Assembly: GCA_965263355.1 (NCBI GenBank)
Contig: CBDHHL010000032.1
Coordinates: 1,920,001-1,984,000 of the forward strand
Source of the DNA: Leptolyngbyaceae cyanobacterium
Lineage (GTDB): Bacteria; Cyanobacteriota; Cyanobacteriia; Phormidesmidales; Phormidesmidaceae
Length of the DNA stretch: 64,000 bases
Direction: 5' to 3'
Position numbers and translations under genes: made by a program. The notes beneath the pieces were generated by a model. It had not been told where the DNA came from. It made no database searches and saw only the letters and a program-made list of their open reading frames with translations. Shown piece by piece: positions 18,458 through 19,612 of this stretch; the first letter of the stretch is position 1; each line of letters opens with the position of its first letter.

Positions 18458-19612
18458 ATGTATGAAGACCCAACAGCGATCGTCATTGATAATGGTTCAG
18501 GCTTTATAAAAGCTGGCTTTGCTGGCAAAGATGCTCCTAGCACCATTTTTCCAAGCATCGTTGCTCGACCACAAGACGCGGGAGCAATGCAGCCAAACGA
18601 TGCCTATGTTGGCCATGAAGCCGAGAGTAAGCGAGGGACTTTAGCCATCAATAATCCCATTGAGCATGGCATTGTGACCAATTGGGATGATATGGAGAGG
18701 ATCTGGTACCACACGTTTTATAACGAGCTCAAAATCACTCCCGAAGAACACCCTGTATTGCTCACTGCGTCTCCCTTAACTCCGAAGGAACATCGTGAGC
18801 AGATGGTTCGGATAATGTTCGAATCCTTTAATGTTCCAGCACTTTACATAACAACTGCCCCCGTGCTTGCGCTCTACGCAGCTGGACGCACAACCGGAAT
18901 CGTTGTTGACATCGGCGATGGTGTGACCCACGTAGTCCCCGTTTATGAAGGAGATGTGTTGCCCCATGGCATTATACGCTTAGATTTAGCAGGGAGAAGC
19001 TTGACGGACTATATGGTCAAACTCCTGAATGAAAGGGGGTATAACTTGAGCACCGCTGCAGAGCGAACCATTGTGCAAGACGTCAAAGAGACATTAGCGT
19101 ATACGGCCCTTGATTTTGAACAGGAAATGCAAACAGCAGCATCGAGCAGTAGCCTTGAGAAGAGCTACGAAGTGCCAGATGGTCGAGGGGTTATCACGAT
19201 TGGCAATGAGCGTTTCCGTTGCCCTGAGGCATTGTTTCAACCGGCCTTGAGTGGCATGGAGTCAGCTGGAATCCATGAAGCAGTGTGCAACTCCATTGTG
19301 AAATTGAAAGCTGATAGGTACACTGATGAGAACGGGATTTATAAGGATATGCGGAATAGCTTCTACTCCAACATCCTTATGACGGGTGGTTCAACCATGT
19401 TTCCAGGGATAGCAGATCGTATGCAAAAAGAAGTAGGGGCATTGGCTCCCCCCACTGTGAAAATTAAGATTATTGCCCCTCCAGAGCGTCGATATGGAGG
19501 TTGGAAAGGAGGCTCTATCACGGTTAGTCAGAGTACATTTCGACAAATGTGGATCTCTAAACAAGAGTACGACGAAAGTGGTCCCGGCATCGTCCATCGG
19601 CGAGAGTTTTAG
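18458..19612 (+). CDS. Eukaryote-type actin
   Basis: [80 protein letters not shown] and [16 protein letters not shown]. Intronless, with GGGAG Shine-Dalgarno upstream. Confidence 0.97.

Follow-up and report, generated by a model that had tools for sequence, protein, structure and literature searches.

A eukaryote-derived actin in a cyanobacterial chromosome, with changes at Q137, in the nucleotide-sensing relay and at the filament interface

The cyanobacterial DNA analysed here, a window of 64 kb, carries an actin gene of eukaryotic descent, P0001, and the question was whether the encoded protein is still a filament-forming actin that hydrolyses ATP or has become something else. The gene is an uninterrupted, intron-free 384-aa frame without a stop, with all three indels in frame. 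P0001 was ~68% (66-68%) identical to conventional actin, its top PDB match was beta-actin (phmmer, E 1.4e-172), and the AlphaFold2 model had an actin fold (pLDDT 91.8) with a TM score of 0.93 to actin. A short-read contig over 17629-19830 showed 0 differences from the actin region of the window. In another sample, a contig over 19016-19762, which takes in the insert described below and the C-terminus, showed 2 differences without gaps. Taken together, short-read contigs from two samples carried the gene or its 3' half gapless, with 0, 7 and 2 differences; this support comes from one study, and the best-matching sample may be the source sample. A sequencing or assembly artefact was ruled out because these contigs carry both the gene and the insert gapless. 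Eukaryotic contamination was ruled out as well, since the gene is surrounded by bacterial genes on a 3.9 Mb contig and a single short-read contig bridges gcvH and the actin gene. The gene set around the actin is typical of cyanobacteria, and the phosphoketolase DNA of the window was at most 78% identical to cyanobacterial genomes in a search confined to that phylum. The GC3 of the actin gene (0.47) was inside the range of host genes, and its codon fit was in the lowest tier among the window genes. A promoter scan found 1 site versus 7.1 in shuffles. No convincing insertion-boundary repeats were found at the locus, no transfer vehicle was matched among plasmids or phages apart from a single weak viral match (E 4e-4), and in a search for an empty site among relatives, the closest family found (8 genomes) gave a match to lplA alone.

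To define the changes in the protein, P0001 was aligned formally with beta-actin by phmmer and by MAFFT, which gave the same indels. Three residues were missing from the D-loop, 1 was added at 246 and 11 were inserted after 287, with the exact register of the insert ambiguous by a few residues. This alignment had been named beforehand as the check on the initial annotation, which had read the gene by eye, and it placed Ala at 137 and left the indels where they had been claimed. The 384-aa length and the three indels were thus borne out, as were Q137A, the altered hydrophobic plug PALSGM, C374E and the retention of DNGSG, GDG, His73 and His161. Of the 112 differences from the reference actin, several go beyond that annotation, namely A138P, E107A, A108S, N111T, R39Q, I64T, Y69N, Y169D and R210Q together with D286K, V339G, I341K, L346T and L349Q; the pairing of E107A with C374E and the wider bacterial clade are also new. 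Every sequence change that had been described is real, and the reading first given to these changes is partly supported. The features are collected in Table 1.

Table 1. Features of the actin gene and its surroundings, in window positions
Feature	Position	Strand	Basis
Eukaryote-derived actin P0001, 384 aa	18458..19612	+	PF00022, E 5e-122
D-loop short by 3 residues; R39Q, H40D, V43A; M44 kept	18566..18601	+	alignments
Pro-rich loop: E107A private, A108S inherited, N111T (Pi back-door residue)	18767..18781	+	alignments; roles as given in PMC9646518
Codons A137-P138 (Q137A, A138P), common to the Microcoleus-type clade	18857..18862	+	alignments, tree
Y169D at the W-loop tip; partner I64 also altered (T)	18953..18955	+	alignments
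Loop 241-247 with 1 additional residue; P243 and D244 kept	19169..19192	+	alignments
Hydrophobic plug: F266L, I/L267S; G268 and E270 kept	19241..19258	+	alignments
11-residue insert at 287/288 with C285L, D286K, V287A; predicted to form a beta-hairpin that protrudes	19313..19345	+	alignments, AlphaFold2
Hinge/target-binding cleft turned polar: S338G, V339G, I341K, L346T, L349Q	19493..19534	+	alignments
C374E, possible replacement of E107 as partner of kept R116	19604..19606	+	alignments; salt bridge inferred
Terminator-like hairpin 3' of the actin gene	19671..19698	+	pattern match only
Terminator-like hairpin 3' of the tubulin gene	19799..19823	-	pattern match only
Divergent beta-tubulin P0122, 442 aa, convergent with actin	19928..21256	-	sequence matches, tree

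Gln137 was present in 30/30 eukaryotic rows, versus Ala in P0001, and none of the conventional-actin D-loop, Y169, D286-V287-D288 and C374 was intact. The P-loops, K18, H73, D154, H161, K213, E214 and the adenosine motif were kept, and the nucleotide pocket was changed at 9/32 positions versus 5.8 expected (P=0.10). In the AlphaFold2 model the insert forms strands at 287-289 and 295-297, and this block has a pLDDT of 78-81. At least 3 additional residues at the insert site occurred in 2/439 actin-like alignments, P0001 and a single gene model from a bat. Of the 22 bacterial rows that cover this position, only P0001 has the insert, and the other 21/21 keep C285-D286. No relative with the same insert was found among the listed rows (8000 + 700 candidates scored) or the 150 listed 50% representatives, and it was absent from 32 genome loci and 7 metagenome loci. 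Three of the point changes were also found in P0001 only: D at 169 (1/467 alignments), E at 374 (1/321) and A at 107 (1/442). Over the full length, no match above ~70% identity was present among those listed.

P0001 branched among conventional actins, apart from Arp1, the sole Arp subfamily in the tree, and its branch was long (0.37-0.47). It did not reach the cut-offs of the prokaryotic actins (bits/cut-off: MreB 22/27, MamK 31.7/400, crenactin 22.5/630, NCBIfam 'syringactin' 92.9/300). Eukaryote-type actins were also found on long, bacterial-flanked contigs of Microcoleus, Oscillatoria, Roseofilum-type, Microcystis and other cyanobacteria, as well as of a few other bacteria. Apart from the search centre itself, they were present in 3/400 of the cyanobacterial genomes sampled and, within one order, in 9/400. 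Sequences on small contigs (L010-L020, L022, L023 and L025-L031) are likely contaminants, and L011, L020 and L022 from this contaminant-like group served as eukaryote-type reference rows. In the protein tree, a 12-row cluster (support 94/93) joined P0001 to Microcoleus-type actins and the Microcystis actin ActM but did not place it any further (clade test p-AU 0.36); Aureispira was omitted from this tree and test as a long branch. A tree of third codon positions without codons 108, 137 and 138 placed P0001 inside the Microcoleus-type A137-P138 clade (96/99), and 51/108 4-fold sites were identical to Microcoleus GLPB, with 0.26 expected. P0001 thus shares ancestry with the A137-P138 clade, and its place in the third-position tree means that A137, P138 and S108 were inherited. 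Q137A, initially taken as a trait of this gene, therefore belongs to the clade, and loss of Q137 recurs among bacterial actins: seven different residues replace it in 12/18 bacterial lineage rows, and the protein tree shows no fewer than 4 changes. When divergent and fused actins were included, Q137 was kept in 393/468. Within the clade, the amino acid at codons 137-138 changed twice, both times in L063, versus 8.6 changes if neutral (P=0.008). D-loop deletions were found in 9/22 bacterial rows, with L005 omitted because its start was cut. The searches found no survey of cyanobacterial actins or of recurrent Q137 loss; most subscription journals lay outside their reach, and the original ActM paper may treat residue 137.

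Several relatives showed features of their own. An A137-P138 actin with N111T (L065, 1480-2004) is interrupted by an insertion sequence past residue ~160. Another actin, L062, has I341K in common with P0001. Three eukaryote-like fusions of 1250 aa (L040, L044, L045) contain an internal actin domain with A/E137-P138, and a weak profilin-like tblastn match (L024, 360-554; E 0.001) precedes the gene of a P137-P138 actin in a myxobacterium.

The actin gene is under purifying selection. The dN/dS was 0.12-0.16 against four clade members at dS 1.4-1.9 (bootstrap 0.10-0.21) and ~0.14 on P0001's own branch (dS >1). Changes fell on 8/86 invariant versus 35/70 variable sites, and sites that were at least 90% conserved avoided change compared to the rest (Fisher p=3e-9). 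The absence of a stop among 108 neutral changes had a probability of P=0.003.

To explore how these changes bear on polymerisation, we used a set of 41 filament-contact residues from bioRxiv 10.1101/309534. Point changes were found at 12/41 contacts versus 91/298 positions elsewhere (p=1.0), and at matched conservation 10.4 contact changes were expected versus 12 observed (P=0.33). Polar contact residues were changed at 4/16 positions versus 23/84 other polar sites, a difference that was not significant. The contacts are thus neither enriched nor depleted for change and show no sign of polymer-specific selection, and the idea in the initial annotation that filament contacts in general had undergone directed remodelling was not upheld. 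Among 12 contacts named in the same source, 7 were kept, 4 lost and 1 weakened in P0001. K61-E167, R62-D288, D244-R290, K113-E195, G268-H173 and M44 with its pocket remained, and both sides were lost at two long-pitch contacts, Y169D with I64T and R39Q with D286K. The proposal of a non-canonical assembly fared better, since the insert lies on D286-V287-D288, and the triple mutant D286A/V287A/D288A is described as non-polymerisable (PMC9010300); this mutation blocks polymerisation outright, and the insert therefore fits a monomer equally well. The loss of Q137 is no argument against a polymer, because Q137A actin is reported to polymerise faster and to release Pi slowly, its helical parameters being canonical (PMC10062479). 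Nor is the combination of D-loop gap and Q137 loss, because ActM has both and polymerises. ActM keeps C285-D286 and Y169, however, so that its precedent leaves the lesions unique to P0001 uncovered.

The published nucleotide-sensing relay starts at Q137 and passes by way of the Pro-rich loop and the salt bridge E107-R116 to C374 and F375 (PMC9646518). Of these relay sites, 5/10 were changed in P0001 versus 1.9 expected (P=0.02, tested after the changes had been seen). E107A and C374E flank the kept R116, and this arrangement would break the relay and may put a swapped R116-E374 bridge in place of E107-R116. With D154 and H161 retained, hydrolysis should be slow and not dead. The initial prediction that the protein binds ATP and hydrolyses it slowly is supported by the kept P-loops and by the reports that Q137A slows hydrolysis but does not abolish it (PMC9646518, PMC10062479).

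The reading that we prefer, though with somewhat less than even confidence, is that P0001 is an ATP-bound, slow and nucleotide-uncoupled cytoplasmic actin that forms static, non-canonical assemblies and not canonical F-actin. A conventional eukaryotic actin, probably from an animal-like donor to judge from the tree, would have entered cyanobacteria long ago and then moved between lineages, and P0001 descends from a Microcoleus-type subclade in which Q137A and A138P were already fixed. Since the P-loops, K18, D154, H161, K213 and E214 remain and Q137 has been lost, P0001 would bind Mg-ATP and hydrolyse it slowly. With half of the relay sites changed, the nucleotide state would be cut off from the surface, and E374 on R116 may fix the C-terminus. 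The canonical double-helical filament would not be built, since the insert, D286K/V287A, Y169D/I64T and R39Q take away part of the long-pitch interface. Self-association by way of the kept contacts would still yield assemblies that are short and static, be they oligomers, ribbons or sheets, as in ActM, and P0001 would be a passive scaffold of the cytoplasm that neither treadmills nor works with eukaryotic actin-binding proteins. Having lost the ATP-splitting trigger and gained a unique insert at the filament junction, it is probably a static scaffold and not a dynamic filament.

The main rival, which we regard as somewhat unlikely, is an obligate ATP-bound, Arp-like monomer with a blocked barbed face, kept for a bacterial partner or ligand. 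Such a monomer would account for the insert at the DVD site with D286K/V287A and for the two contacts abolished on both sides, and insertions are said to explain the non-polymerisation of Arp4 and Arp8 (PMC3510490). Intact cyanobacterial actins that lack 7-12 D-loop residues (L062, 1429-2586; L063, 1465-2613; L038, 1495-2568) also suggest that filaments may not be the selected trait. Against this, five of the named inter-residue contacts, from K61-E167 to G268-H173, survived the long branch, polar contacts changed no more often than other polar sites, and no partner gene conserved beside bacterial actins was found at the loci compared. Canonical F-actin with slow hydrolysis, in which the insert is looped out of the filament, is quite improbable: the behaviour of Q137A actin (PMC10062479) and a sister clade that keeps nearly all contacts would allow for it, but the unique insert, D286K, Y169D, R39Q and the plug changes co-occur in P0001. 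Equally hard to credit is relaxed drift, whereby the gene would be a dispensable passenger with tolerated damage on its way to becoming a pseudogene. The lack of enrichment at contacts, the long branch and the lowest-tier codon fit could be read in this way, as could the decay of the sister copy L063 (dN/dS 0.3-0.5), the interruption of L065 and the patchy spread among sampled genomes, but the low dN/dS at dS >1, the frame without a stop, the three in-frame indels and the conservation gradient argue for a maintained gene.

The initial annotation had also offered a capper or poison of eukaryotic filaments, and in the wider form of an exported capper, poison or decoy against a eukaryotic host or grazer, or of a sink for actin-binding macrolides, we consider this extremely unlikely. 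A blocked barbed face would cap a filament that it joined, and both the tubulin and a secondary-metabolite cluster adjoin the actin; against this, P0001 has no signal peptide, no secretion gene was found among the window ORFs scanned, the target-binding cleft is degraded and more polar (Y169D, I341K, L346T, L349Q), and so are residues of the latrunculin site (Y69N, E207T, R210Q). ActM, moreover, is intracellular (PMC3254629). A separate proposal concerns the inherited layer and is compatible with the scaffold reading that we prefer: the changes in common at 137, 138 and 339 would be an adaptation to folding without CCT/TRiC and PhLP2A, with slow hydrolysis as a side effect. When the 136 sites with a conservation of 95% or more across 30 eukaryotic rows were compared with 20 bacterial rows, the most variously replaced were V339 (18 rows, 6 residues), Q137 (16 rows, 6 residues) and A138 (16 rows, 4 residues), then K336. 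The groove that lies between helices 137-145 and 340-350 is masked by PhLP2A, and mutations in 340-344 impair actin folding (PMC10837153); P0001 turns this groove polar, and ActM is soluble in E. coli (PMC3254629). We nevertheless find this account doubtful, because Q137 is kept in 6/18 lineage rows, Roseofilum, L061 and L062 keep Q137, A138 and V339 together, the eukaryote-like fusions also have P138, and release from constraint would yield the same hot-spots. No literature on V339 or A138 with CCT, or on 'syringactin', was found.

The neighbouring beta-tubulin P0122 was 47% identical to animal beta-tubulin and 52-54% identical to its nearest relatives, one of which is cyanobacterial. It grouped with one cyanobacterial beta-tubulin and two other proteins (100/99) inside an animal-like branch. 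The cyanobacterium with this beta-tubulin, G003 (J06592_8), also has an actin on another contig; a tubulin match was found in 0/400 other sampled genomes and in 0/8 other actin-bearing genomes. In G003 the beta-tubulin is followed by a shortened second tubulin gene, ~30% identical (L033, 45-2555), and the P-loops of its actin are degraded. No paper on a cyanobacterial beta-tubulin, or on actin adjoining beta-tubulin in a cyanobacterial chromosome, was found in a search that most subscription journals lay outside. A contig at depth 4.5 joined across 19845-21599, with 30 letters on the short side and at a low likeness setting, which hints that some strains have the actin but not the tubulin as a presence/absence polymorphism. 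P0122 and its nearest relatives have Asp/Glu where beta-tubulin has Lys, at the site equivalent to the catalytic E254 of alpha-tubulin, and this acidic residue hints that P0122 may polymerise as a single subunit. Its T7 loop has changed in other respects too, and it has lost the acidic tail. A broader conjecture, which we consider unlikely as a whole, is that bacteria domesticated eukaryotic actin several times through convergent hinge changes (137/138/336/339) that would give CCT/PhLP2A-free folding and switch hydrolysis-coupled dynamics off. P0001 would be the end point, with the salt bridge swapped from E107 to E374 and a non-helical polymer set by the hairpin, and together with the acidic-site beta-tubulin the host may have a chaperonin-free, single-subunit actin-plus-tubulin cytoskeleton.

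Other genes of the window were also noted. GcvH (17361-17954, minus strand), beside a lipoate ligase, has an N-terminal extension of ~70 residues that resembles a signal peptide plus linker, and its look-alikes are ordinary GcvH proteins of 131-137 aa. A small-molecule cluster at 21588-32384 encodes two CmcI-type methyltransferases, cupins, methyltransferases, a PLP decarboxylase, DUF3326, a flavin amine oxidase and a Rieske oxygenase whose closest PDB match is SxtT/SxtDIOX (E 4e-86). Within it, a chimeric ORF at 25454-26461 (minus strand), which is a recent duplication or an assembly join, copies the methyltransferase at 23593-24237 at its start and the decarboxylase at 26815-28146 at its end. 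Two near-identical genes of the PD-(D/E)XK transposase family stand in tandem at 35598-37625 (minus strand).

Eukaryote-to-bacterium transfer of actin is known from few cases, and here it appears as a selected family across several cyanobacterial genera, one that repeatedly loses the otherwise invariant catalytic Q137. Bacterial actins are natural experiments on the need for CCT in folding, on the purpose of ATP hydrolysis without actin-binding proteins and on the relay from nucleotide to C-terminus. Sites 137, 138 and 339 and the E107A/C374E pair offer cheap single mutations for testing, and a natural actin that folds in E. coli or does not polymerise would serve as a reagent.

By its sequence, P0001 is a member of a wider cyanobacterial actin family of the ActM kind and departs from conventional actin at Q137 and in the filament motifs. 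ActM, described from a single Microcystis strain (PMC3254629), corresponds to P0365 (UniRef A8YGN0) of Microcystis aeruginosa PCC 7806, whose termini match the primers given there. Both are cyanobacterial, eukaryote-derived actins on long branches, with Q137 lost, residue 138 changed and the D-loop short by 3, yet they are only ~54% identical, and ActM has 125 differences from the reference actin compared to 112 in P0001. ActM has G137/S138, keeps E107, Y169, C285-D286, the plug and C374, and has no insert. It is adjoined by the profilin PfnM, whereas P0001 is adjoined by beta-tubulin and no PfnM tblastn match was found inside the 64-kb window. ActM forms short ribbon-like polymers or filaments (PMC3254629). 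The Microcoleus-type actins (L001, L006, L041, L042, L065, P0089, P0098, P0391) have A137, P138, mostly S108 and a synonymous history in common with P0001; in contrast to it they keep the D-loop (except L042), the W-loop, the plug, the DVD site and E107/C374, at ~70% identity. They are known from databases, and no description of them was found in the literature searched. Engineered Q137A actin (PDB 8gt4; PMC10062479) resembles P0001 in combining Ala137 with D154 and H161 and in its expected slow hydrolysis, but it is a single mutant that forms canonical filaments and has neither A138P nor the relay and interface changes. In DVD actin (PMC9010300) the same surface is disrupted as in P0001, which, however, differs at 286 and 287, has an insertion of 11 residues and keeps D288 and R290. 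Arp4 and Arp8 (PMC3510490) share with P0001 the actin fold, bound ATP, which is predicted for P0001, and an insertion on the filament-forming face; unlike them, P0001 branches with conventional actins and carries one short insert.
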